Source: Patescibacteria group bacterium
GTDB lineage: Bacteria > Patescibacteriota > Minisyncoccia > Portnoybacterales > UBA2143
Direction: 5' to 3'
Assembly (NCBI GenBank): GCA_018830295.1
Contig: JAHJSM010000002.1
Location: 14,598-78,597 of the forward strand
DNA: 64,000 nucleotides
Shown here piece after piece: positions 12,401 to 61,556 of the stretch (the stretch's first letter is position 1; every line of letters begins with the position of its first letter). Under the pieces are notes generated by a model. The model was not told where the DNA came from. It did not search any database and worked only from the letters and a program-made list of their open reading frames with translations. The translations under genes and the position numbers were made by a program.

Positions 12401-14961
12401 TGCCGCAAAATAATAAGAAGACAATTTGTTTTGTCCACTATGGGATTGGTTGGAGAGATGGGGTGAATACAGTTATTAAGACCTTGGTTGATGGAATTCA
12501 GGAGGAGAATCCGCGGCTTGGGTTTCGTTTTATTGGAGGAGAAGTGAAAGAGCGATTTTTGGAAGGGGCTGATTATATAGAAATTCCCGAACTTTTGCCA
12601 GTAGAAGATGATTTAAATAAAAGCGAAATTGAAAAAAGGGGATTGGCGATTGCTCAAAAAATTGCCGAAGCGACAGAGGGGTCTGATGTCGTAGTAATTG
12701 AAAATCCTTTTGTCGGTGAATATCATTTGTCGGCAATGCTTGGTTTTTCTATTTACGCGAAGCAATTTAAGCCGTCTGGAACAAAAATATTTTTTAGAAT
12801 TCACGATTTGTATGTTGATAGTCCGCATTATCGCGACGGAGCGTGGAAATCTTTTTCTTCTTCGGAAATTGAAAATATTGTTAGGGGCGAAGGAGTTGAT
12901 GGTTTTTTAATCATTAATCACGAACTGAAGGAAAAATTAATTCAGGAAGGAGTTGCGGCAGAAAAAATATTTTATCTTTCAAATGGCGTTGATGGAGAAA
13001 AATTTAATCAACGATTAGAAAGCGAGGAGACCGAAGCAATTCGCGCGGGGCTGGGAATTTCAGACAAAGAGGCGAAGATTTTACTTTATCCTGTGCGAGT
13101 CGTGCCGAGAAAAAATATTGAAGAGGCGATTCTGCTTGTTAATTATGTTCGTCAAATTACGGGCGAAAACTATATTTTAGTTGTTCCAGGAAAAGTTGAT
13201 AAGTATGACCCCTTGAGCCAAGGTTATTATGATGTTTTGGAAAAAATTGTCTTGGTGGCCGGCTTTCCGATTATTTTTACAAAAAAGCCTTTGCCTTTGA
13301 AAAGAAGATACAGCGCGTCAGGGGCAGTTGAAGAGTATAGCGTTGGTGATTTATATCAAGCGTCTTTTGCTACGGTCATGACTAGTTTAAGAGAGGGGTT
13401 TGGTTATCCATTTTTAGAATGTTGGTTCGCGGGGAAAATTGTTGTTGGGCGAAGAATACAAAATATTGTTGACGATTTTGAAAAAAGCGGACTTTCTTTT
13501 GAATGGCTTTATGATAATTTTTTGCTTAATAATAGAGATGTCGTAAACGCCGAAGATGAGAAAAGTTTTAAGAGGGCAAAAAGGGTTTTGGAAATTTTTA
13601 GGGACAAGGAGCTGAAGGAGCGGATATTGGAGTTAAATAAAGATGATGTTTTGAAGCAAGTTGAAGTTTTGCGGGATAGGACGCGACGGGAGAAAATCAT
13701 TAAGGAGAATTTGGAGGCGGCTAAAAATATTTATGAAGTGTCGGAGGTCGCGAAACAATTTTTAGAGTTAATACAGGGGGCTGCCCCCGTTGCGGGGGCA
13801 GCCCCCTTGGGACATTACAAAAGTTGCGAGATTGTGGTTGGAATTCCTTCATATAACGAGGCGGATTCCATTTCTAATGTCGTGAAGGTGGTTGATGAGG
13901 GGCTTGTTAAATATTTTAGCGGTCGGCGGGCGGTGATTATTAACAGCGATAATAATTCTTCGGATGGAACGAGCGAAGTTTTTTTAGGGGTTAAAACGAA
14001 GACGCCTAAAATATATATTTCCACGCCGCCGGGCGTTAAAGGAAAGGGAAATAATTTTAGAAATTTATTTTTGAAAATGAAAGAATTGGGCGCGGACGCG
14101 ACGATGGTTGTTGACGCTGATTTGAAAAGCATTACTCCAGAATGGGTAAAATGTTTAATAGAGCCGATGATGGACGGCTATGATTACATCACGCCGATTT
14201 ACGCGCGCGATAAATATGACGGGTCTATTACGAATCATCTTTGCTATCCTATAGTTTATGGACTTTTGGGATATGATATTCGCCAACCGATTGGCGGGGA
14301 TTTTGGGTTTTCGGGGAGGATGGCTGATTACTGGCTGGAGCAAGAATGGACAGAGGAAGTTGGGAAGTTTGGAATTGATATTTTTATGACTATGAACGCG
14401 ATTAAGTTTGGCGCGAAGTTAGGACAGGTTGATTTGGGATTTAAAATTCATAAAACCAGCGCTCCGAAATTGGATAATATGTTTTTAGAAGTCGCGAGTT
14501 CTCTTTTTTCGTTTTTACCCAAAGAGAGAGCGGCGGAAATTCAAAAACCTCCCTTGGTTTGTAGTATTAGCGATGAAGAGGGTTTTTCTTTGGATGATTT
14601 TAACCAAAAAGAAAGTACGGCTCGCGAAAAAGAGGAAATTAACGAGAAAATAGCGGTGGAGTTTAAGGAGAATTATAGCGTTTTGAAGTCGTTTATTCCC
14701 GAAGAAATTCGCGTTGGTTTAGAGCGAGAGTTTTTTGAGGAAAAATCTTTTGGGATAGACGGCGAACTTTGGGCGAAATCGGTTTATTGTTTGTTGGGCG
14801 CTTTTAGGGATGGCGCGGATAAAAAGGCGGTATTAAAATTGTTAAGAGCGCTGTTTTTCGCGAGGAGGAATGTTTTTGTTGAGGAGATTAGAGGTAAGAG
14901 CTATAATGATTTAGAAAAGATAATTCAAAGAGAGGCGAATTATTTTTTGGATTTGTTGTAA
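12400..14961 (+). CDS. fused glycosyltransferase: N-terminal GT4-like domain plus C-terminal GT2/GT81 glucosyl-3-phosphoglycerate synthase-like domain, joined by an in-frame copy of the GC palindrome repeat
   Basis: GT4-like EGFGYPFLECWFAGKIVVG; C-terminal half CEIVVGIPSYNEADSI...DADL (DxD)...IGGDFGFSGRMADYW resembles GpgS/MpgS-type GT2; linker QGAAPVAGAAPLG encoded by the repeat at 13776-13806. Confidence 0.6.
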   Translation: MPQNNKKTICFVHYGIGWRDGVNTVIKTLVDGIQEENPRLGFRFIGGEVKERFLEGADYIEIPELLPVEDDLNKSEIEKRGLAIAQKIAEATEGSDVVVIENPFVGEYHLSAMLGFSIYAKQFKPSGTKIFFRIHDLYVDSPHYRDGAWKSFSSSEIENIVRGEGVDGFLIINHELKEKLIQEGVAAEKIFYLSNGVDGEKFNQRLESEETEAIRAGLGISDKEAKILLYPVRVVPRKNIEEAILLVNYVRQITGENYILVVPGKVDKYDPLSQGYYDVLEKIVLVAGFPIIFTKKPLPLKRRYSASGAVEEYSVGDLYQASFATVMTSLREGFGYPFLECWFAGKIVVGRRIQNIVDDFEKSGLSFEWLYDNFLLNNRDVVNAEDEKSFKRAKRVLEIFRDKELKERILELNKDDVLKQVEVLRDRTRREKIIKENLEAAKNIYEVSEVAKQFLELIQGAAPVAGAAPLGHYKSCEIVVGIPSYNEADSISNVVKVVDEGLVKYFSGRRAVIINSDNNSSDGTSEVFLGVKTKTPKIYISTPPGVKGKGNNFRNLFLKMKELGADATMVVDADLKSITPEWVKCLIEPMMDGYDYITPIYARDKYDGSITNHLCYPIVYGLLGYDIRQPIGGDFGFSGRMADYWLEQEWTEEVGKFGIDIFMTMNAIKFGAKLGQVDLGFKIHKTSAPKLDNMFLEVASSLFSFLPKERAAEIQKPPLVCSISDEEGFSLDDFNQKESTAREKEEINEKIAVEFKENYSVLKSFIPEEIRVGLEREFFEEKSFGIDGELWAKSVYCLLGAFRDGADKKAVLKLLRALFFARRNVFVEEIRGKSYNDLEKIIQREANYFLDLL
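13776..13806. repeat. GC-rich paired palindrome GGGGGCTGCCCCC-GTTGC-GGGGGCAGCCCCC located in frame inside a CDS (repeat family copy 3)
   Basis: translates as GAAPVAGAAP between the two glycosyltransferase domains; the same repeat elsewhere is intergenic. Confidence 0.8.
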
Positions 14962-15045
14962 AACTTAAAATGGTGTATAATTTAATAAGGTCGTACTAAA
15001 TTTAATAAATAAAAAAATAAAAAAATAAAATAAATAAACAAAAAT

Positions 15046-15756
15046 ATGAAAAAAATATTTATCTATACAGTTATTAGTTCGTTTGTTTTTGTCGCTCTTT
15101 GCTCGGTGGTTTATGGAGCGAACACAAATCAAGGAGATCAAACTCAAAATCAAGATCAAACCCAAACACAAGATCAAACTCAAACTCAAGACGGAGAAGG
15201 CATAATGATAATGACCCAAGAAAGACAACAGATTAAAGCTCAAACAAAGGTTGAGTTAAATCAAATGATACAAGAGAGAAAACAGGAAATGGATCAAGAG
15301 ATGGACGAAACAGAGGAAGATATTAAAGGAGTTTATCAAAATCAAAATCAAGTTAAATTAATGGTTCATTCTTTGCTTGCCTCCGAGGAATTGGTGGGTG
15401 GTATTGGTCCACAAGTTTCCGAAGTCGCGCGCGGGTTTAATAATTCGGTTCAGGCGACAATTCTGGCGGAGGAGAAAATTAATTCAAGAAGCAGATTGGT
15501 CAAGTTATTTATGGGCGGGGATGATGAGGCGGCAGATGAAATAGAGCAAGAAGTGAACGCGAATCACGCAAGAATTATGACGCTTAAGCAATTAATGACA
15601 CAATGTGAATGTGATGAAGAAGTTAGAAACACAATACAGGAGCAGATAATGAATACTGAACAAGAGCAGATTAGATTAGAGGAATTAGCTGCTGGCGAGA
15701 AAGCGAAAAAAGGATTATTTGGTTGGATGAAGAATATTTTTAGGTTTGGGAGGTAA
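15046..15756 (+). CDS. secreted low-complexity/coiled-coil protein (QDQTQTQ repeats)
   Basis: signal peptide MKKIFIYTVISSFVFVALCSVVYG; Q/D/T/E-rich repeats. Confidence 0.4.
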   Translation: MKKIFIYTVISSFVFVALCSVVYGANTNQGDQTQNQDQTQTQDQTQTQDGEGIMIMTQERQQIKAQTKVELNQMIQERKQEMDQEMDETEEDIKGVYQNQNQVKLMVHSLLASEELVGGIGPQVSEVARGFNNSVQATILAEEKINSRSRLVKLFMGGDDEAADEIEQEVNANHARIMTLKQLMTQCECDEEVRNTIQEQIMNTEQEQIRLEELAAGEKAKKGLFGWMKNIFRFGR

Positions 15757-15761
15757 AAAAT

Positions 15762-16703
15762 ATGACTCAACAAAATAACGCGGCGAAATATGCTTTCTTC
15801 TATATGCTGTCTTTGGTGTCTTTGATTTTTATGTCCTTGGCGACGGGGATGATTGTTTTTCAGATTATCAATAAAAAAATAGTGGATGTAATCCAGTCCC
15901 GCGGTCAATTTTCGTCGGACCAGTTAAAATTCGCGATTTCGGCTTTAATAGTTTCGGCTCCTATTTTCTATATCACCGCGAGGCAGATTTTCAAGAATTT
16001 ATTTTCAGGCGCTTTAGACAAAGATTCTCAAATTCGCAAATGGCTGACTTATTTTATCTTGCTAATTTCTTCGGTCGTGATGACAGGGTGGCTTATCGCG
16101 GTTGTTAATGCTTTTTTGGACGGCGAATTAACTCTTAAATTTATCTTGAAGGCCTTGACGGCTATTGGCATCGCGGCGATTGTTTTTACATTTTATCTTT
16201 ACGATATTAAACGGGAAAATGTGATGGGAGCGAAAGATAATGTGATTCGGGCGTATTTTTACGGTTCGTTGGCAATTGTGATTGCTGTTTTTGCTTCGTC
16301 TCTTTTTATCGTGGAATCGCCGACAGCAACAAGGGATAGAAAAATGGACAATGAGGTTTTGTCAAAATTACAGAGTTTAGATAATTCTATTAGAAATTAT
16401 TATCTTGAAAACGAGAAATTGCCTGTTGATTTTGGAGAATTGATGGCGGAGTTTAGTTATTTGGGCTATTTGGGCGATAAAGATTTTGAGAATTCTGCGA
16501 CTGGCGAAAGGTTTGAATATATAGTTAAGGAAGAAAAAACTTTTGAACTTTGCGCTAATTTTAGAATATCCAATGAAGACGAATCGGATATTTCTCATGA
16601 CATTTACGGCAAAGAGTGGAGGCATGACGCGGGTCGTCAATGTTTTGAGCGGAAAATCAGAGAGACAGATATTATAGGCGAGCCGAGATTAAAAATTGAT
16701 TAA
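15762..16703 (+). CDS. integral membrane protein, unknown function
   Basis: about 5 predicted TM helices followed by a soluble C-terminal domain. Confidence 0.4.
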   Translation: MTQQNNAAKYAFFYMLSLVSLIFMSLATGMIVFQIINKKIVDVIQSRGQFSSDQLKFAISALIVSAPIFYITARQIFKNLFSGALDKDSQIRKWLTYFILLISSVVMTGWLIAVVNAFLDGELTLKFILKALTAIGIAAIVFTFYLYDIKRENVMGAKDNVIRAYFYGSLAIVIAVFASSLFIVESPTATRDRKMDNEVLSKLQSLDNSIRNYYLENEKLPVDFGELMAEFSYLGYLGDKDFENSATGERFEYIVKEEKTFELCANFRISNEDESDISHDIYGKEWRHDAGRQCFERKIRETDIIGEPRLKID

Positions 16704-28154: not shown

Positions 28155-29138
28155 CTAAATTAGGCCCATTTTTTGTTTTGCTTCTTTGAGGGTTTTTTGG
28201 GCTTTTACTTTTGCTTGTTTGGCGCCTTCTTGGAGGATTTTTTCTAATTTTTTAGGATTTTTTTCTAAGGCGGCTTTCTTTTCTTGGAATGATTTTAGTC
28301 CCAGAATGATTGTTTCAGCCAAGCCCTCTTTGAATTGGGCGTATCCTTTGTTTTTGTATTTTTTCTCAATATCGTCAAAAGATAAATCGGAAAAATGTTT
28401 GTAAATAGTCATAAGGTTGGCGATGGCTGGCCTTTTTAAATCATATTCTATGGTAGTTCCAGAATCCGTGACCGCTTTCTTTATTTTTTGCTCAATAACG
28501 GCGGGGGAGTCAGTTAGGGAGATATAATTGTTTGAATTGGCGGCGCTTTTTGACATCTTCTTTAATGGATTATCAAGTCCCATAATTCTGGCGGTTTCTT
28601 TGTTGATGAGCGGCTGGGGGACGGTGAACGATTTTCCGTAGAGATGGTTAAAGCGTCGCGCCAACGATCGCGCCAGTTCAATGTGCTGTTTTTGGTCTTC
28701 GCCAACAGGAACGGCGTCGGTTTGGTAAAGCAAAATGTCGGCTGCCATGAGGACAGGGTAATCAAAAAGTCCGACATTAACTTTGTTTTTATGCTGTTCG
28801 GATTTGTCCTTGAATTGCGTCATCCATTCTAATTCGGGGATTTTCGTGATTGTGTTTAAAAGCCATGCCAATTCGGAGTGTTCGGAAAGATGGGACTGGA
28901 CGAAAACAACACTTTTTTTATGGTCAATTCCAGCCGCTAAATAGATCGCTGCCATTTCTAAAACGGCTTTTCTTAATTTTTGAGGGTCTTGGGGAACGGT
29001 TATAGCGTGCAAATCAACGACGCAAAAAATAGAATTATATTCGTTTTGGAGTTCAACCCAGTTTTTGATGGCGCCCAGGTAGTTGCCGATATGGGCGATG
29101 CCAGTTGGCTGAACGCCGCTGAAGATGGTTTTTTTCAT
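28155..29138 (-). CDS. trpS: tryptophanyl-tRNA synthetase
   Basis: GVQPTG..HIGNYLGA (HIGH-like) and KMSKS motifs; 327 aa. Confidence 0.85.
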   Translation of the reverse strand: MKKTIFSGVQPTGIAHIGNYLGAIKNWVELQNEYNSIFCVVDLHAITVPQDPQKLRKAVLEMAAIYLAAGIDHKKSVVFVQSHLSEHSELAWLLNTITKIPELEWMTQFKDKSEQHKNKVNVGLFDYPVLMAADILLYQTDAVPVGEDQKQHIELARSLARRFNHLYGKSFTVPQPLINKETARIMGLDNPLKKMSKSAANSNNYISLTDSPAVIEQKIKKAVTDSGTTIEYDLKRPAIANLMTIYKHFSDLSFDDIEKKYKNKGYAQFKEGLAETIILGLKSFQEKKAALEKNPKKLEKILQEGAKQAKVKAQKTLKEAKQKMGLI

Positions 29139-30970: not shown

Positions 30971-31420
30971 ATGATTTCAATGGAACAAATTAAACAATTG
31001 CGCGAAGAAACCAATGTTTCTGTTATGGAGTGCAAGAACGCCTTAGAAGAGGCGGGCGGCGACATGAAAAAAGCGCTGGAGATTTTGAAAGAAAAAGGCA
31101 AAGCAAAAGCGTTAAAGAAGGCGGGTCGGGAAGCGAAACAAGGTTTAGTTGAAGCGTATATTCACAACAATGGCAAAATCGGCGTTGTTTTGGAGTTAAA
31201 CTGCGAAACAGATTTTGTCGCTAGAAACGAGGACTTTAAAGCGCTGGCGCACGATATTGCGATGCATATCGCGGCGATTGCCCCAAAAGACAAGGAGGAA
31301 CTTTTACAGCAACCCTTTATTAAGGACGAAAAGCAAAAAATTGAGGACTTGATAAATGGCGCGATTGCTAAATTGGGAGAAAATATTAGAATAGGGGAAT
31401 TTTCAAGGTTGGAGATATAA
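30971..31420 (+). CDS. tsf: elongation factor Ts, short (149 aa) form
   Basis: N-terminal UBA-like IKQLREETNVSVMECKNALEEAGGDMKKALEILKEKG; directly downstream of rpsB as in the rpsB-tsf operon. Confidence 0.75.
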   Translation: MISMEQIKQLREETNVSVMECKNALEEAGGDMKKALEILKEKGKAKALKKAGREAKQGLVEAYIHNNGKIGVVLELNCETDFVARNEDFKALAHDIAMHIAAIAPKDKEELLQQPFIKDEKQKIEDLINGAIAKLGENIRIGEFSRLEI

Positions 31421-31428
31421 TTTTCGTT

Positions 31429-32121
31429 ATGCTCACAATTATTCTTTATTTTCTCATTACTTTTAGTTTAATTGGTTTAGGGGTTATTCTTTACCGTAAA
31501 ATCCCTGTTTTGGCGAATCTTTCAGAGGAGGAGATTATGATTTTGTCCAGAAAGAAGGGAGTAATTGAACGATTTCGGGGGATAGATTATAAACAGCATG
31601 GATTTAATTTGATGATTTTTTTAGAAAAACTTTTAAGGCGAATCAAAATCGTGTTTTTGAAAATAGAAAATTTGCTTAACAAATGGATTAAGGGATTGAG
31701 GACGCAGTCGCAAATTATGGCCCAGAAGTCCAAAGAGTGGATCAGGCAAAGAGAGATGAAGCGGAGAGAAAAGCAAACGGTTTCGTCCGACAAGACAAAC
31801 GATGAGGTTTCTATTAGAATAAACGATAAAAAAGAAGACGATTCGCAGTTTGAGAAGAAAATGGACGAAATGGCTCTTGATGATTTAAAAAAACCGATTA
31901 AGGAAGAGCAAAAATGGATTGACCTGATTATTGAAAATCCTAAAAATATTACCGCGTATAAGTTTTTGGGATTGTTCTATTGGAAACAGCACAATCACGC
32001 CGATGCGAAAGCGTCGTTGGAGATGGCGGTCAAGTTGGGCTCCAAGGACAAAAAAGTAAAAGAAATTTTAAGGGAGATGAAAGAGGCGGAGGAAGAATCG
32101 GCCCATGTAGCTCAGGGGTAG
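31429..32121 (+). CDS. membrane-anchored hypothetical protein with C-terminal TPR-like region
   Basis: N-terminal TM; C-terminal YKFLGLFYWKQHNHADAKASLEMAVKLG; 3' end overlaps tRNA-Thr by about 20 nt so the true stop is uncertain. Confidence 0.35.
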   Translation: MLTIILYFLITFSLIGLGVILYRKIPVLANLSEEEIMILSRKKGVIERFRGIDYKQHGFNLMIFLEKLLRRIKIVFLKIENLLNKWIKGLRTQSQIMAQKSKEWIRQREMKRREKQTVSSDKTNDEVSIRINDKKEDDSQFEKKMDEMALDDLKKPIKEEQKWIDLIIENPKNITAYKFLGLFYWKQHNHADAKASLEMAVKLGSKDKKVKEILREMKEAEEESAHVAQG

Positions 32122-32172
32122 AGCAACTGTTTTGTAAACAGTCGGTCGGCGGTTCGAATCCGTCCATGGGCT
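32101..32172 (+). tRNA. tRNA-Thr (anticodon UGU)
   Basis: manual cloverleaf: acceptor GCCCATG/CATGGGC, D-stem GCTC/GAGC, anticodon stem ACTGT/ACAGT with loop TTTGTAA, T-arm GGCGG-TTCGAAT-CCGTC. Confidence 0.8.
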
Positions 32173-32180
32173 CTGGGTTC

Positions 32181-32253
32181 CCAGCGGTGGCAGAACGGTT
32201 TATGCGCTGGTCTGTAAAACCAGTTTAAGTAGGTTCGACCCCTACCCGCTGGA
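32181..32253 (+). tRNA. tRNA-Tyr (anticodon GUA), class I (5-nt variable loop) with C1:G72 and A73, i.e. archaeal/eukaryal-type identity set
   Basis: acceptor CCAGCGG/CCGCTGG (C1:G72), discriminator A, anticodon stem CTGGT/ACCAG with loop CTGTAAA, variable TTTAA, T-arm GTAGG-TTCGACC-CCTAC. Confidence 0.65.
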
Positions 32254-32262
32254 CAGGATAAA

Positions 32263-33390
32263 ATGAATACAGAAGAAAAAACAAAACTTATTTCCCGCTT
32301 TACGGAAGAGGTTATGACGCCGGATGATTTGGCGGAACTTCTGTCTAAGAATGTTTCTCTTAATCACTACATCGGATTTGAAATTTCCGGAAAAATCCAC
32401 CTTGGGACGGGTTTAATGTGCATGCAGAAAGTTAAAGATTTCCATGACGCGGGCGTAAAGTGCCATATTTTTTTGGCTGACTGGCATACTTGGATTAACG
32501 ACAAACTTGGCGGGGACAGAGAGGCGATCGGAAGAGTCGCGGTTGGATATTTTAAGGAAGGAATGAGCGCCGCTTATGAATGTCTTGGCGGCAATCCTGA
32601 AGATTTGAATTTTATTCTTGGCTCGGAATTGTATCACGGCAATGATGATTATTGGAAGACGATGATTGAAGTGAGCAAACACACGAGTTTGAGCAGAATG
32701 CAAAGGAGTATTGACATTTTAGGGCGGAAAGAAGGACAGGCGGTTGATTTCGCTAAATTGATTTATCCAGCAATGCAGGTGGCTGATATTTTCGCGATGC
32801 AGATTCATTTTCCGCACGCCGGGTCGGACCAAAGAAAGGCGCAAGTAATCGCGCGCGATGTCGCGAAAAAACTGACAATTATGCCGCTTAAGGCGGGGGA
32901 AGAAATCGTTAAGCCGGCGGCTGTCCATCATCATTTAATTTTAGGACTGCAAAAGCCAGCGATTTGGCCCATTCCTTCGGAAATTGACAAGCATGAACTT
33001 TGGTCATCAATGAAAATGAGCAAATCAAAGCCCGATAGCGCCGTTTTTATTCACGATTCCGAGGATGAGATAAAACGAAAAGTCATGAAGGCCTTTTGCC
33101 CAGAAAAGGAAACTGACTTCAATCCGATTATTGATTGGGCGGAATATTTGATTTTTACGCGAGAAAAGAGTATAACCATAAGGCGAGAGGAAGCGCATGG
33201 AGGGAATTTGGAAATTAAAGATATTGAAGAATTAAAAGAACTTTTCCAAAAAGGCGAACTTCACCCCCAAGACCTCAAAAAATTTGTCGCGGAATATTTA
33301 TCTGATTTGCTCAAGCCAATCAGAGACCGCTTCAGCAAAGGCAAGCCAAAAGAAATGCTGGAGGAATTAGAAACAGTTTTGAAGGGGTAA
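32263..33390 (+). CDS. tyrS: tyrosyl-tRNA synthetase, archaeal/eukaryal type (no C-terminal S4 domain)
   Basis: YIGFEISGKIHLGTGL...HIFLADWHTWIN, LIYPAMQVADI, KMSKSK and C-terminal ELHPQDLKKFVAEYLSDLLKPIRDRF are each close to M. jannaschii TyrRS blocks; distinct from the bacterial TrpRS at 28155. Confidence 0.8.
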   Translation: MNTEEKTKLISRFTEEVMTPDDLAELLSKNVSLNHYIGFEISGKIHLGTGLMCMQKVKDFHDAGVKCHIFLADWHTWINDKLGGDREAIGRVAVGYFKEGMSAAYECLGGNPEDLNFILGSELYHGNDDYWKTMIEVSKHTSLSRMQRSIDILGRKEGQAVDFAKLIYPAMQVADIFAMQIHFPHAGSDQRKAQVIARDVAKKLTIMPLKAGEEIVKPAAVHHHLILGLQKPAIWPIPSEIDKHELWSSMKMSKSKPDSAVFIHDSEDEIKRKVMKAFCPEKETDFNPIIDWAEYLIFTREKSITIRREEAHGGNLEIKDIEELKELFQKGELHPQDLKKFVAEYLSDLLKPIRDRFSKGKPKEMLEELETVLKG

Positions 33391-33399
33391 TTTAATAAT

Positions 33400-33987
33400 A
33401 TGATAAACGAGCAGAAATTAAAAAAATTATACGCGGACGGATTGTCTATGCAAGAAATATCGGAGAAAATGGATTGGGGATACAAAAAGGTAGTTTATTG
33501 GATGAGCAAGTATGGTATTTTAAGAAGAACAAGAAGCGAAGCCACTTATGTAAAGAAAAATCCAAACGGAGATCCTTTTAAAATTAAACAAAAATTAAGT
33601 TTGAGAGAAAAAGAATTAAAGAGCATGGGGTTAGGATTGTATTGGGGCGAGGGGGACAAAAGCGATTATTCATCTGTTAGATTAGGAAATACCGATTCAC
33701 GATTGATTAAGAAATTTATAGAGTTTTTAATTCAAATATGCGGCGTTAAGAAAGAAAAACTAAAGTATGAACTCCAAATATTTAATGATGCTGACCAGCA
33801 AAAGGCGATTAAATTTTGGATGAAAGAATTAGGAATAAGAAAAGATGATTTTACACAAATAATCAATCATCCACCAAGAGGGGATGGCACATACAGAAAT
33901 AAAAATCAAACGGGTGTCTTAATAGTTTATTGCCACAATAAAAAACTTAAGAAAGAGATTATAAAAATGTTAGAACAAGTATTGTAG
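33400..33987 (+). CDS. LAGLIDADG-like homing endonuclease candidate with N-terminal HTH
   Basis: single motif GLGLYWGEGDKS followed by I-CreI-like LIKKFIEFLIQICGVK; N-terminal LYADGLSMQEISEKMDWGYKKVVYWMSKYGI HTH. Confidence 0.4.
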   Translation: MINEQKLKKLYADGLSMQEISEKMDWGYKKVVYWMSKYGILRRTRSEATYVKKNPNGDPFKIKQKLSLREKELKSMGLGLYWGEGDKSDYSSVRLGNTDSRLIKKFIEFLIQICGVKKEKLKYELQIFNDADQQKAIKFWMKELGIRKDDFTQIINHPPRGDGTYRNKNQTGVLIVYCHNKKLKKEIIKMLEQVL

Positions 33988-34003
33988 TTTAATAATTTAA
34001 TAA

Positions 34004-34289
34004 GCCGATGTAGCTCAGTTGGTAGAGCACCTCCATGGTAAATCTCAAATTTTGCCCATTTTAGCGGAAACGCTGGAATGAATCCCGAATTACGGTTAAA
34101 AGCCCAGTACAGGGTTAAGACCGTGGCGTCAATCAAAATTGATACGCCCGAACGACTGACAAGGGAAGCTAAGCTTTGACACAGTGTCAAAGTATGCTTA
34201 AGATACAGTCTATCCCTCTAATATGTGCTTATAAAAAATAGGGGCGTACGAGAAGGAGATGGTCCTCGGTTCAAATCCGAGCATCGGCT
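34004..34289 (+). tRNA. tRNA-Thr (anticodon GGU) interrupted by a group I intron between positions 36 and 37 (exons 34004-34039 and 34253-34289)
   Basis: exon junction restores a 73-nt cloverleaf: acceptor GCCGATG/CATCGGC, D GCTC/GAGC, anticodon stem CCTCC/GGAGA with loop ATGGT|AA, T-arm CTCGG-TTCAAAT-CCGAG; 5' exon ends in U, intron ends in G. Confidence 0.6.
34040..34252 (+). ncRNA. group I self-splicing intron (213 nt) within tRNA-Thr(GGU)
   Basis: P1: exon AUGGU plus intron AAA pairs with IGS UUUGCCCAU (U.G at splice site); GCGGAAACGC GNRA hairpin; R-like CGAACGACTGACA (34149-34161) pairs with S-like AAGATACAGTC (34200-34210) to form P7; P8 hairpin CTTTGACACAGTGTCAAAG; terminal omega-G. 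Confidence 0.55.
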
Positions 34290-34334
34290 CAAGGAGGAAG
34301 TTAGGCCTTCTGAGTAGTAAATAAAATAAAAAAT

Positions 34335-34493
34335 ATGCCACAAGATCACTTAATCAAATTTCAATGTGACGAGTGTAAGAGAATTAACTATTACTCGCGC
34401 AAAAATAAAAAGTCAGTTCAAAAGAAATTAGAACTGAAAAAGTTTTGTAATTGGTGTAGGAAGCATACGATTCATAAAGAGTTGAAGAAATAA
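34335..34493 (+). CDS. rpmG: 50S ribosomal protein L33 (Cys4 zinc-ribbon type); not in the ORF track (<60 aa)
   Basis: MPQDHLIKFQCDECKRINYYSRKNKKSVQKKLELKKFCNWCRKHTIHKELKK; KLELKKF...H.I.KE matches the L33 C-terminus; CxxC...CxxC. Confidence 0.75.
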   Translation: MPQDHLIKFQCDECKRINYYSRKNKKSVQKKLELKKFCNWCRKHTIHKELKK

Positions 34494-34569
34494 GGGCGCG
34501 TCCGTTAATTGGTTAAACGGCTGGTCTCCAAAACCGGTCCTGCAGGTTCGAGTCCTGCCGCGCCTGCCA
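34494..34569 (+). tRNA. tRNA-Trp (anticodon CCA), CCA encoded
   Basis: acceptor GGGCGCG/CGCGCCT (G1.U72), D CGTT/AACG, anticodon stem CTGGT/ACCGG with loop CTCCAAA, T-arm GCAGG-TTCGAGT-CCTGC. Confidence 0.8.
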
Positions 34570-36084
34570 ATGGGTCAGGTTAGAACCTTTAGTTTTATTA
34601 AGTTCTGCCACGAAATTAAAGGGTTCTTTAAGGTCAAAATTCAGTAACCCATCTCTTAGTATAAAGTTTTTGCCAACAGCCCTTAGAAGGGCTTTTTTGT
34701 CTTCAATACTGCCCTCCTCAAACACTTTATAAGCATGGTTGGTTTGGATAATTAGGTTTTCCGCATAATCATGCCACGCTTGATTGGTTTTATCATGGGC
34801 TTCCAATTTTTCTTTGGCTTCCATTTTGGCGTCTAAAATTTCTCTTTTTTTCTTGCCGTACTCTTCTTTTTCAATTAAGCCGTCAGTATAAAGATTAAGC
34901 AATCTATCTAGTCTGTCCTCGCATTTGTTAAATATATTTTGCCAATACTTAATACTATTTAAATATAATTCTTTTTCGTTATTGTGGCTTTTTTTGACAG
35001 CCGTCATTAAAAGTTCTTTAACCATGTCGCCAATAGTGATTTCCTTTATTTTCAACCTTAATTGTTTTTCAATTTCTTCTTCTCTTAAATAGGGTTGAGC
35101 ACATTTTCCTCTTTTTTGGGTGCAGTGGTAATAAACATGTCCTTTTTTCTCTTCGGCTGTAATTGAGCATCCGCAATAACTACATTTGATGATTCCTCTG
35201 AAGGCGAATTGCCAGCGTTGAGAAATGGGGCGGCTATTCTGGCGGAGGACTTCTTGGATTCGATCAAAGATTACTTTACTGATAAGCGGTTCATGATTTC
35301 CTTCGTATTGTTCGTTTTTCATAACCATCATTCCGTAGTAAAATGGATTTCGAAGTAATCGGGCTAAAACACTTTTACTAACTTTTTTATTTTTTAATTT
35401 ACCCCTTAAGTCAAGCTGGTAAGATTTTTCTGCCATTGTTTCCAAATTGAAGTTTCCGGTGGCATATTCCTCAAAAATTTTCTTAATTATCGAACCTTGG
35501 ATAGGATCAATTTCTATCCGTTTTAATACTTTGTTTTCCTTTTCTAAAAGCCGTTGTTTGTGTTTGTCATAACTTTTGCCCGCGATAACGCCTTTTCCGT
35601 CCATATTAATATATCCTATCGGCGCTAAACCTGGCCATTCCTTTTTAGTAGTTAGCTTATGCCTAAAACCTCTTTTAGTGTTAAAACTTAAATCATCAAC
35701 ATATTTTGTAGCCATGCCGAATTCAATTTGCATTAGAAATTTATCATTAACGCCTTCGTAAGTTTTTTCAGCAGTGACAATTTTTGAAATAGTGCCCTTG
35801 CCTAGCCAATAAATAATTCTGCCTCCATCAAGTTCATTTCTAGCTAGTCGGTCTAATTTCCAAGCGATGATCCCGCAATTTCCAGTTTCTATTTTTTCCA
35901 TCATTTCATTAAAAACAGGTCTGCCAATATCTTTGGCTGACCTGGATTCTTTGAATATCTCTACAATGTTTAATCCTTCCTTTTGCGCTAACTGAGTTAA
36001 TTCCCTAATTTGAGAATCAATTGAGAGTATTTGACGATCTTCCTCTTCTGAAGACTTGCGAACATAAAGAAAATATTGGTTCAT
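34513..36084 (-). CDS. large serine recombinase (phage-type serine integrase)
   Basis: N-terminal resolvase catalytic domain YVRKSSEEEDRQILSIDSQ (Ser nucleophile), recombinase domain, zinc ribbon CSYCGCSITAEEKKGHVYYHC, C-terminal coiled coil; last 18 codons (WQARQDSNLQDRFWRPAV) are encoded on the antisense strand of tRNA-Trp nt 34513-34569. Confidence 0.8.
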   Translation of the reverse strand: MNQYFLYVRKSSEEEDRQILSIDSQIRELTQLAQKEGLNIVEIFKESRSAKDIGRPVFNEMMEKIETGNCGIIAWKLDRLARNELDGGRIIYWLGKGTISKIVTAEKTYEGVNDKFLMQIEFGMATKYVDDLSFNTKRGFRHKLTTKKEWPGLAPIGYINMDGKGVIAGKSYDKHKQRLLEKENKVLKRIEIDPIQGSIIKKIFEEYATGNFNLETMAEKSYQLDLRGKLKNKKVSKSVLARLLRNPFYYGMMVMKNEQYEGNHEPLISKVIFDRIQEVLRQNSRPISQRWQFAFRGIIKCSYCGCSITAEEKKGHVYYHCTQKRGKCAQPYLREEEIEKQLRLKIKEITIGDMVKELLMTAVKKSHNNEKELYLNSIKYWQNIFNKCEDRLDRLLNLYTDGLIEKEEYGKKKREILDAKMEAKEKLEAHDKTNQAWHDYAENLIIQTNHAYKVFEEGSIEDKKALLRAVGKNFILRDGLLNFDLKEPFNFVAELNKTKGSNLTHWQARQDSNLQDRFWRPAV

Positions 36085-38741: not shown

Positions 38742-38931
38742 ATTTTTTTATTTATATTTTAATTATGTCCAAAAACACAAAGCCCCCCACGAGTGATAGT
38801 CCTTTCGGACCATCCAATAGCCTTTCGACCATTGACCCAATCACGAGTACTCAATGAGGAGCTTAATATCGTGATTGGGGTTTTATGCCATATCCCTATG
38901 AGACGAGACTTAGGCAAATTAAATTGTCTGA

Positions 38932-39870
38932 TTATAGATTATCTTTTTTATTCTTTTTAGTCAACCGCTTGTCGTGGAATTTGTGATAGGCTTCTTTTAG
39001 AAAATTGTTTGAGACACTTAAGTATCTTTCGGTTGTGGAAATTGAGCTATGTCCAAGTAATTTTTGGACAAAGTAAAGATTACAGCCGTTGTTGAGCAAA
39101 TCCACGGCGAAAGACCTCCTCATTGTATGAGGCGTGACTTTTTTGACAATCTTGGCTAATTTGCTATATTTGGTTATCAGTAATTGAACGCCCCGAGGTG
39201 ATAGCCGGGCTATTATATCCCTATCATGACGGACAAATAGGGCAGGACAATTATCTTTTCTTGCCTTAAGGTAATTTTCAAGACCATCAATGGCATTTCC
39301 GGACAGAAAAACCAGTCTAATCTTGCCTCCCTTGCCTATGATTGCGAGCTCTTTTTGTTTAAAATTAATTTGTTCCTTATTTAAATTAGTTAGTTCGAAA
39401 AGCCGGAGCCCAGTTGAAAATAAAAGTTCTAAAATTGCTTTATCTCGCAAATTGATTATTGGCTTGGCTTGGTATCTAAGTGGAGCTTTTAGTAATTTCC
39501 TCAATTCGGACCTATCTAAAAAAGTTACTTCTCTGTCACTAATTTTAGGCAATTCAATGATTTGAGGCGTAATAGCTATTTTATAATCTTGTTTTTGAAG
39601 ATGGGCAATAAAACTGCGGATTATTATTAAATAATGCGATTGGGTGGCTAAACTCAAATTTTGGCTTGATTTGCCTTTTAATTTGCTCAACCACAATTGA
39701 TAATTAATTAAATTTCTTTTAGTAATTTGGTCAATTGGAATATTGCCAAGTTGCTTTTTAAAAAGATCTAAGCCACGGCTATAACTAATTAGCGTGTGAT
39801 GACTTTTGCCTCTAATTTTTAGATATTCCAAAAAATTTTTAATGGATTGTGTTAATTTTATTGTTTCCAT
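38932..39870 (-). CDS. tyrosine recombinase (XerC/XerD-like integrase family)
   Basis: C-terminal catalytic block TPHTMRRSFAVDLLNNGCNLYFVQKLLGHSSISTTERYLSV (R...HxxR...Y). Confidence 0.8.
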   Translation of the reverse strand: METIKLTQSIKNFLEYLKIRGKSHHTLISYSRGLDLFKKQLGNIPIDQITKRNLINYQLWLSKLKGKSSQNLSLATQSHYLIIIRSFIAHLQKQDYKIAITPQIIELPKISDREVTFLDRSELRKLLKAPLRYQAKPIINLRDKAILELLFSTGLRLFELTNLNKEQINFKQKELAIIGKGGKIRLVFLSGNAIDGLENYLKARKDNCPALFVRHDRDIIARLSPRGVQLLITKYSKLAKIVKKVTPHTMRRSFAVDLLNNGCNLYFVQKLLGHSSISTTERYLSVSNNFLKEAYHKFHDKRLTKKNKKDNL

Positions 39871-47785: not shown

Positions 47786-48016
47786 ACCGATAGAGAAAGT
47801 GAGTAACAATTTGATAACCTAACCTTTGAGCTTTTCGCTTGGAGTATGGTTTAAATCCATCTACATAAAAACGGTCTTCTGGCCGGCACTATGTAGATGG
47901 TCTTTGTCCGAAAGGGCATTGGGTGATCTGAAAGGATTGCCGCCGACGGAAGGCCTTTTTTGTTGGCAAAATTTATTGGGGGAAATCAATTTAAATAATT
48001 TAATAATCAAAAAAAT

Positions 48017-60915: not shown

Positions 60916-60944
60916 AAAAGGATTAGGGTGGAGATAATAACAAA

Positions 60945-61030
60945 TGAATAGCCATAGACAATAGGCAGGCGATAAGTCCTATCGAGGTAAAGAAGTTTTG
61001 GGATTTTTGGTCTGTCTATGGTTGACGGAC
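60945..61030 (+). promoter_or_regulatory. candidate ribosomal protein L10 leader (autoregulatory structured 5' UTR)
   Basis: nested stems CCATAGACA...TGTCTATGG and ATAGG...CCTAT immediately upstream of rplJ; no covariance model run. Confidence 0.4.
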
Positions 61031-61037
61031 TTTTTTT

Positions 61038-61556
61038 ATGATTACAAAAGAAAAGAAAAAGGAAATTGTGGATGGTTTGACGGATAAACTTTCGCGGCAG
61101 ACAGCGGTTGTTTTTTTTGATTATACTGGACTGAAAGTTAATCAGGTTCAGAAATTGCGCGAGAAGTTGAGGGGGGAAGAAATAGATTGTCAGGCGAGCA
61201 AAAAAACATTGATTGATTTGGCTTTGGGCAAGGCAGGATTAAGCGGAGTTAAGATTAAGGATTTACCCGGGCAGGTCGCGATGGTTCTTGGGTATAAAGA
61301 TGAGGTTGCGCCGGCTAAGATTTTGTATGATTTTTCAAAAGGTAATGAAAATTTGAAGATTTTGTCTGGTTTTGTTCAGGGAGAGTATTTGGGAAATGAT
61401 GCGATTTTAAGTTTGGCTAAACTTCCGTCTAAGCAAGAATTGTTAGGAAAATTGGTTGGCAGTATCGCGTCGCCTTTGTCGGGCATGGTTAATGTTTTGC
61501 AGGGCAATTTGAGAGGATTAATTTGTGTATTAAAACATAAGGGATTAAAAGCGTAG
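61038..61556 (+). CDS. rplJ: 50S ribosomal protein L10
   Basis: L10 N-terminal KKEIVDGLTDKLSRQTAVVFFDYTGLKVNQVQKLR; followed by rplL. Confidence 0.85.
   Translation: MITKEKKKEIVDGLTDKLSRQTAVVFFDYTGLKVNQVQKLREKLRGEEIDCQASKKTLIDLALGKAGLSGVKIKDLPGQVAMVLGYKDEVAPAKILYDFSKGNENLKILSGFVQGEYLGNDAILSLAKLPSKQELLGKLVGSIASPLSGMVNVLQGNLRGLICVLKHKGLKA

Follow-up and report, generated by a model that had tools for sequence, protein, structure and literature searches.

How does a bacterium come to charge tyrosine with a synthetase and a tRNA of archaeal type, and what became of the bacterial system that such a pair would displace? Tyrosine identity is a textbook barrier between bacterial translation, with G1:C72 as well as the variable arm (V-arm) in tRNA-Tyr, and archaeal/eukaryal translation, with C1:G72 and no such arm; genetic code expansion with the orthogonal pair from M. 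jannaschii is built on the same barrier. The question is raised by a tRNA-Tyr gene and the tyrosyl-tRNA synthetase (TyrRS) gene, tyrS, directly behind it, in a 64,000-nt stretch of contig JAHJSM010000002.1 from a candidate phyla radiation (CPR) bacterium, hereafter called the window. We consider it about 80% probable that, in the tyrosine-charging system of this Parcubacteria-group CPR bacterium, an enzyme of archaeal type (DPANN-like) took the place of the bacterial TyrRS and the tRNA-Tyr became adapted to the new enzyme. The pair is laid out as follows:

32181..32253, + strand, tRNA-Tyr(GUA), class I, 73 nt (ARAGORN, anticodon GTA; Rfam tRNA model, 58.9 bits; cloverleaf)
32254..32262, + strand, spacer between tRNA-Tyr and tyrS, 9 nt, caggataaa, with AGGA as a Shine-Dalgarno-like element
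32263..33390, + strand, tyrS, tyrosyl-tRNA synthetase of archaeal type, 375 aa, lacking an S4 domain (PF00579, PDB 2cyc, NF006330)

The Pfam content of the TyrRS is a tRNA-synt_1b domain alone (PF00579, class I W/Y; residues 31-350, E 5e-37), and the S4 domain, the V-arm binder of bacterial TyrRS, was not found in the 375-aa protein by Pfam. Comparison with all PDB sequences revealed Pyrococcus horikoshii TyrRS (2cyc, 375 aa) as the best match, with an E value of 3.9e-127 over residues 2-367 against 2-369, so that the two enzymes are equally long and alignable end to end. The next matches are archaeal and eukaryal TyrRS, including that of M. jannaschii (1j1u, 4e-45), whereas Thermus thermophilus TyrRS (3.8e-5) and entries for tryptophanyl-tRNA synthetase (TrpRS; 1e-4 or worse) match weakly. 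The protein exceeds the cut-off of NCBIfam NF006330 (PRK08560; 418.8 bits vs 220) and stays below those of TIGR00234 tyrS (102.1 vs 113.8 bits) and of all TrpRS models (TIGR00233, 97 bits vs 176.75). In our reading NF006330 represents the archaeal type and TIGR00234 the bacterial type, the table labelling both 'tyrosine--tRNA ligase'. A TrpRS identity for the tyrS product was ruled out by the NCBIfam cut-offs and the PDB ranking, and a separate TrpRS is encoded at 28155-29138. The nearest proteins come from Portnoybacteria (98% identical), Patescibacteria (88%) and Wolfebacteria (67-70%), and DPANN homologues are 58-64% identical.

The sequence blocks of the enzyme include IHLGTG, IYPAMQVAD, KMSKS at 251-255 and ELHPQDLK...KPIR. 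Residues were aligned with M. jannaschii TyrRS, the numbering of which agrees with that used in PMC1934993. The pocket for tyrosine is kept as Y36, D175, Q172 and Q190 (M. jannaschii Y32, D158, Q155 and Q173), together with H46, and the pocket residues are conserved in the window TyrRS and in all 80 related loci described below. In M. jannaschii TyrRS, Arg174 reads C1, Arg132 reads C1 through water and Lys175 reads G72 (PMC1934993). The window enzyme shares with the M. jannaschii TyrRS-tRNA-Tyr complex (1j1u) both the catalytic motifs and this C1/G72-reading Arg/Arg/Lys set, present as R191, R148 and K192 (M. jannaschii R174, R132 and K175) and invariant in 80/80 related loci. D337 and H334, corresponding to M. 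jannaschii D286 and H283, are likewise conserved, and we take them to be the readers of G34. Relative to the 306-aa M. jannaschii TyrRS, the window enzyme has ~30 more residues before KMSKS along with other small insertions, and the equivalent of F261 is a His. The P. horikoshii and M. jannaschii enzymes are archaeal, whereas this one is encoded in a bacterium. By homology, it would read C1 with Arg191 (plus Arg148), G72 with Lys192, also A73, and the anticodon base G34 with Asp337/His334; an S4-less homodimeric enzyme of this kind would have no need of a long variable arm.

The tRNA carries the archaeal/eukaryal tRNA-Tyr identity set in full (C1:G72, A73 and anticodon GUA; identity rules in PMC9976931, Table 1). 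Of the four uninterrupted tRNAs that ARAGORN detects across the window, two are tRNA-Thr(UGU) at 32101-32173 and tRNA-Tyr(GUA) at 32181-32254. In the cloverleaf, the 7-bp acceptor stem (CCAGCGG/CCGCTGG) gives C1:G72 as the first pair, the discriminator is A73 at position 32253, the D-arm has a 3-bp stem and a 10-nt loop, and the T-stem has 5 bp. The variable loop measures 4-5 nt (TTTAA under the segmentation used); the V-arm is absent, which gives the molecule its class I shape. CCA is not encoded, and the tRNA would need CCA addition. At 9 nt, the spacer between tRNA-Tyr and tyrS is too short for a promoter or terminator of its own.

A preliminary description of this locus had claimed a TyrRS without a C-terminal S4-like domain, its HIGH-region, YPxMQxxD, KMSKS and ELHPxDLK...PIR blocks, an archaeal rather than bacterial type, and a tRNA-Tyr(GUA) with C1:G72, A73 and a 5-nt variable loop lying 9 nt before the synthetase gene. 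All of this is borne out. The protein shows tRNA-synt_1b only and is collinear with the P. horikoshii enzyme, the four blocks are located in the 375-aa ORF, the archaeal type follows from the 2cyc and Thermus matches and the passing of NF006330, the tRNA features are seen by ARAGORN, Rfam and the cloverleaf, and the 9-nt distance is exact (A73 at 32253, ATG at 32263). Its core reading, an archaeal-type TyrRS with a matching archaeal/eukaryal-identity tRNA-Tyr in a bacterial genome, therefore holds.

The surroundings of the pair are bacterial. On one strand, the cluster runs tRNA-Thr(UGU) - tRNA-Tyr - tyrS - ORF195 - tRNA-Thr(GGU) - rpmG - tRNA-Trp, with successive spacers of 7, 9, 9, 16, 45 and 0 nt. 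The members that bear on its bacterial character, with a TrpRS gene nearby, are:

32101..32173, + strand, tRNA-Thr(UGU), opening the cluster and separated from tRNA-Tyr by 7 nt (32174-32180) (ARAGORN; Rfam, 71 bits)
34335..34493, + strand, rpmG, bacterial ribosomal protein L33 (Pfam PF00471, 65.5 bits)
34494..34569, + strand, tRNA-Trp(CCA), with G73 (bacterial Trp identity) and CCA encoded (ARAGORN; Rfam, 53.6 bits)
28155..29138, - strand, TrpRS (NCBIfam trpS model TIGR00233, 369.8 bits, cut-off 176.75)

This is a native bacterial tRNA cluster with tyrS inserted behind tRNA-Tyr, and we regard it as comparable to E. coli thrU-tyrU-glyT-thrT. The gene order of the cluster is the same in the close relative L001 and in the WWE3 locus L039, and the step from tRNA-Thr(UGU) to tRNA-Tyr is found in L001, L039, L085, L086 and L088. 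Since the TrpRS passes TIGR00233 and the tRNA-Trp has G73, the archaeal-type identity is confined to the tyrosine system in this segment. The bacterial genes on the contig encode ribosomal proteins S2, L31 and L33, EF-Ts, RF-1 and TrpRS; the host is a bacterium of the Parcubacteria-group CPR, the group into which Portnoybacteria fall.

An archaeal-type gene in such a setting could also stem from an assembly or binning chimera that joined DPANN archaeal DNA to a CPR contig, given that CPR and DPANN co-occur and that bins can be cross-contaminated, as stated in the available text of Mukai, Reynolds, Crnkovic & Soll 2017 (Life 7:8, PMC5370408). We give this next to no weight: tRNAs of the bacterial cluster lie within 9 nt of tyrS, the same junctions appear in the independent assemblies L001, L081 and L082, with the tRNA-Tyr/tyrS arrangement repeated in L039 as well, and the guanine-cytosine (GC) content of the 1-kb bin with tyrS (32-33 kb) is 0.46, near the 0.38-0.45 of the flanking core bins.

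Because the spacers are short, the genes lie on one strand and no terminator stands out, tyrS would probably be co-transcribed with the cluster tRNAs as one transcript and freed by tRNA processing. Processing of the tRNA 3' end would then yield a tyrS mRNA with a very short leader carrying AGGA. A promoter/terminator scan of 31300-34700 returned sites no more numerous than in shuffles.

Comparison with related loci ties the form of the tRNA to the type of the enzyme. A one-genome-per-species scan yielded 80 relatives from CPR, DPANN archaea, Chloroflexota and Dormibacterota. Among the bacterial loci, 11, including the window, have a tRNA-Tyr no more than 0.6 kb upstream of tyrS, and 3 others have one within 6 kb; these nearby tRNA-Tyr genes have C1:G72 and A73 in 14/14 cases and are class I in 12/14, and a V-arm occurs together with C1:G72 in two WWE3 tRNA-Tyr genes. 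Six further CPR loci (4-9 kb each) were reached via homologues of ORF195. In these, tblastn finds no archaeal-type tyrS, and tRNA-Tyr is class II with G1:C72, A73 and a length of 83-87 nt in 6/6. In five of these six class II loci it precedes tRNA-Thr(GGU), matching the window, and in L089 the order is Thr(GGU)-Tyr-Thr(UGU). On the archaeal side, no tRNA-Tyr was found near tyrS in any of 26 loci, with flanks up to 10 kb on each side and introns allowed.

The tRNA-Tyr itself is most likely a resident bacterial gene remodelled in place and not an import, because it has a D-arm of 3 bp and 10 nt and occupies the native Thr-Tyr slot of the cluster. A 3-bp D-stem with a 10-11-nt loop is present in all CPR tRNA-Tyr of both classes and likewise in E. 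coli tRNA-Tyr, whereas M. jannaschii tRNA-Tyr has a 4-bp stem with a 9-nt loop. The window tRNA body thus lacks the 4-bp D-stem expected of archaeal descent, with M. jannaschii as the archaeal reference. Percent identity of the tRNA arms was tried as a test of origin and set aside as undiscriminating, D-arm architecture and synteny alone being informative. The two WWE3 genes with V-arm and C1:G72 look like an intermediate state: the resident bacterial tRNA-Tyr would first have flipped its first pair to C1:G72, and the V-arm would have been lost later.

The opposing view, in which tRNA and synthetase were imported jointly from a DPANN archaeon as one cassette and tRNA-Tyr is archaeal by descent, draws on the class I form of the tRNA with C1:G72/A73, 9 nt from an archaeal-type gene, and on the recurrence of the tRNA-Tyr to tyrS linkage in unrelated genomic contexts (CPR, Aggregatilineales, Dormibacterota and others). 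For such tRNAs, the available text of Mukai et al. allows 'bacterial or archaeal origins' (PMC5370408). We nevertheless consider joint import unlikely in view of the 26/26 archaeal loci without a tRNA-Tyr near tyrS, the native Thr(UGU) to Tyr slot that is held by a class II G1:C72 tRNA-Tyr in other CPR genomes, the 3-bp D-stem and 10-nt loop that fit bacterial class II tRNA-Tyr and not M. jannaschii, and the WWE3 genes with their intermediate appearance.

The archaeal-type pair is very probably the host's only tyrosine-charging system. It could otherwise be supplementary, orthogonal to an ordinary bacterial TyrRS/tRNA-Tyr elsewhere in the genome, and might serve stress, antibiotic resistance or special decoding, as in the TrpRS-A proposal. 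A precedent exists in the dual bacterial and archaeal Trp systems of a Beckwithbacteria genome (PMC5370408), and the view here is limited to 64 kb of the genome. An extra pair is nonetheless quite improbable, since the tRNA sits in the native tRNA-Tyr slot with the normal GUA anticodon, a second tyrS-like ORF or tRNA-Tyr was not found within the 64-kb window, genomes in this group are highly reduced, and the available text of Mukai et al. reports dual systems for Trp and none for TyrRS (PMC5370408). The preliminary description had spoken of a co-inherited orthogonal pair. Its pairing is supported by linkage and covariation (C1:G72 in 14/14 against class II G1:C72 in 6/6), but 'orthogonal', read as a further system alongside a native one, finds no support in the 64 kb, where the tRNA fills the one native slot for tRNA-Tyr and neither another tyrS nor another tRNA-Tyr was found. 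The tRNA body looks bacterial.

Several points weigh against a replaced enzyme with an adapted resident tRNA. The status as sole system is judged from 64 kb of a ~0.74-Mb genome, the charging specificity of the pair is a prediction from homology, and co-transcription is deduced from spacing alone, the promoter/terminator scan being uninformative. On the tRNA side, the D-arm comparison has M. jannaschii, outside DPANN, as its sole archaeal member, and D-arm identity is undiscriminating (0.55 to M. jannaschii vs 0.40-0.70 to CPR class II tRNAs). It is because of these identities and this single archaeal reference that our confidence in a remodelled tRNA goes no further than likely.

A neighbour-joining (NJ) tree of TyrRS with 100 bootstraps, rooted on M. 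jannaschii, places the window enzyme with L001 at 100% bootstrap within a CPR group, and groups it with DPANN-related archaeal-type sequences (58-64% identity). P. horikoshii TyrRS branches outside the DPANN and bacterial sequences. One clade unites 53 bacterial TyrRS at 63% bootstrap with no archaeal sequence inside and all DPANN outside, and a Moraniibacteria TyrRS and one other bacterial TyrRS branch separately among DPANN. Because the query seeded the sampling, the deep branching of this tree counts as weak evidence.

The relatives extend well beyond CPR. Archaeal-type TyrRS that are 50-60% identical to that of the window occur widely in Chloroflexota, complete ~4.3-Mb chromosomes among them, as well as in Dormibacterota (loci L021, L023, L028-L033, L037-L038, L040-L053, L055-L060, L063-L074 and L076-L079). 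Where a tRNA-Tyr is nearby in these loci, it is class I with C1:G72/A73, and the enzymes fall in one clade with the CPR sequences (63% NJ bootstrap). No flanking genes other than the tRNA-Tyr/tyrS pair itself were found in common across phyla. Because the 53 bacterial sequences form one clade, and because the linkage is the sole conserved neighbourhood across phyla and is absent from 26 archaeal loci, all sampled bacterial archaeal-type Tyr systems may stem from one archaea-to-bacteria transfer. The linked tRNA-Tyr and tyrS would then be either an ancestral character tying CPR to Chloroflexota and Dormibacterota or a self-sufficient two-gene 'identity-switch' cassette passed among bacterial phyla. 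We offer this single-transfer reading tentatively, with the odds leaning against it.

An archaeal-type Tyr pair in CPR was already described in 2017 (PMC5370408), and the window locus adds detail, not discovery. According to the available text of that paper, archaea/eukarya-type TyrRS with C1-G72 tRNA-Tyr are known in Parcubacteria, Microgenomates, WS6 and WWE3 with DPANN-like sources, CPR tRNA-Tyr occur both with and without a V-arm, and Wolfebacteria, whose enzymes are 67-70% identical to the window TyrRS, are included in the TyrRS tree. The window shares with these systems an S4-less, DPANN-related TyrRS of archaea/eukarya type and a C1-G72 tRNA-Tyr. It differs in that their tRNAs mostly keep the V-arm, whereas the window tRNA-Tyr has lost it. 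In the same available text, a Portnoybacteria-like lineage is not named, tyrS 9 nt after tRNA-Tyr inside a Thr-Tyr-Thr-L33-Trp cluster is not described, the linkage of tRNA-Tyr to tyrS across bacterial phyla and its absence in archaea are not found, and Chloroflexota/Dormibacterota cases do not appear ('Chloroflexi', 0 occurrences). A literature search on archaeal-type TyrRS in Chloroflexi or Dormibacterota gave nothing relevant.

The TyrRS/tRNA-Tyr of E. coli has been replaced by archaeal or eukaryal pairs through engineering (cited in the available text of PMC5370408 as refs 17 and 18), which likewise produces a bacterium living with an archaeal-identity Tyr pair. The engineered pairs brought their tRNA along, whereas the window tRNA appears to be a native gene, remodelled. 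Natural bacteria across this barrier show the co-adaptation of synthetase replacement and tRNA, and the present locus is a clear end-state example, with the first pair flipped, the V-arm lost and the enzyme gene directly behind the tRNA in a native cluster. As a compact natural pair, it may also serve engineering.

Between tyrS and rpmG, the cluster contains a free-standing gene and an interrupted tRNA:

33400..33987, + strand, ORF195, 195 aa, an N-terminal helix-turn-helix (HTH) and a single LAGLIDADG-fold domain, free-standing
34004..34039, + strand, tRNA-Thr(GGU) 5' exon, with U36 as its last base and 97.6% identity to the 5' half of the uninterrupted L001 gene
34040..34252, + strand, divergent group I intron, 213 nt, position 36/37 (RF00028, 19.1 bits; homologue in L086)
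34253..34289, + strand, tRNA-Thr(GGU) 3' exon (alignment with L086; intact gene in L001)

ORF195 matches no Pfam family, and no LAGLIDADG family appears even at E <= 10, but the LAGLIDADG-like ORF noted earlier behind tyrS does show the alpha-beta-beta-alpha-beta-beta-alpha arrangement of that fold. Its N-terminal 50 residues match an HTH module known from phage endonuclease families. Within the motif LGLYWGEGD, G83-E84-G85 is invariant in 32 homologues, and in a manual alignment to the motif E84 may correspond to the catalytic Asp at the end of the LAGLIDADG helix. Database homologues number about 795. ORF195 or a homologue lies directly upstream of tRNA-Thr(GGU) in 7/7 CPR loci, with the intron present or not (homologue loci L083, L085, L086, L087, L088 and L089); L001 lacks ORF195, and its tRNA-Thr(GGU) follows immediately on the tyrS stop. 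In the window, it lies outside any intron and ends 16 nt upstream of tRNA-Thr(GGU), which sets it apart from intron- or intein-encoded genes. ORF195 could be a free-standing homing endonuclease tied to the tRNA-Thr(GGU) site and perhaps acting jointly with the ORF-less intron; alternatively, it could be a WhiA-like DNA-binding protein that has been domesticated.

The intron splits tRNA-Thr(GGU) between U36 and A37 and contains no ORF. The 5' exon ends at U36 (34039) and the intron ends with G (34252), and the joined exons match the uninterrupted tRNA-Thr(GGU) of L001; the gene is also uninterrupted in L083, L085, L087, L088 and L089. In L086, a homologous intron of 207 nt occupies the same position, and the alignment of tRNA plus intron shows 87% mean column identity with compensatory changes. 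The split gene was missed by ARAGORN and by Rfam at the gathering threshold, and came to light through visual inspection and comparison with L001. The intron scores 19.1 bits with RF00028 against a gathering score of 50 (E 0.015, 501-nt search), which is expected of the 'divergent' Patescibacteria tRNA-Thr introns. Nakagawa et al. 2026 (PMC13011429) describe such divergent group I introns, located at 36/37 of tRNA-Thr(GGU) in Patescibacteria, and the window intron shares with them the tRNA, the insertion site and the escape from RF00028 and ARAGORN. The window and L086 differ in having a free-standing LAGLIDADG-fold gene right before the intron-bearing tRNA; in the available text of that paper 'free-standing' has 0 occurrences and no such gene is noted.

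Directly after tRNA-Trp lies a ~21.8-kb island (34570-56350) that is absent from the syntenic L001 and has a lower GC content (0.32-0.40 over much of its length). Two full-length LOOT RNA motifs (Rfam RF03000, gathering 46.4) are present in it, with 73.9 and 67.6 bits. Located features are:

34513-36084, - strand, large serine recombinase, overlapping the tRNA-Trp 3' end
38795-38916, - strand, LOOT RNA motif, just downstream of the tyrosine integrase gene
38932-39870, tyrosine integrase, an island gene
47816-47941, + strand, LOOT RNA motif, just upstream of the giant subtilase gene

Other island genes encode RadC, a C5 DNA methylase, an SF1 helicase-nuclease and a 1939-aa subtilase/Ig-repeat surface protein. 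This region is probably a mobile element that has integrated, or a genomic island; a search for att-like repeats of tRNA-Trp at its far end found none. A homologous large serine recombinase is encoded at 14854-16356 of the Peribacteria-labelled L002, a few kb downstream of tRNA-Tyr/tyrS, which may be coincidence. Beyond the island, an ordinary ribosomal protein L10 leader (Rfam RF00557, 46.2 bits) was found at 60934-61045 on the + strand, upstream of rplJ (61038-61556).

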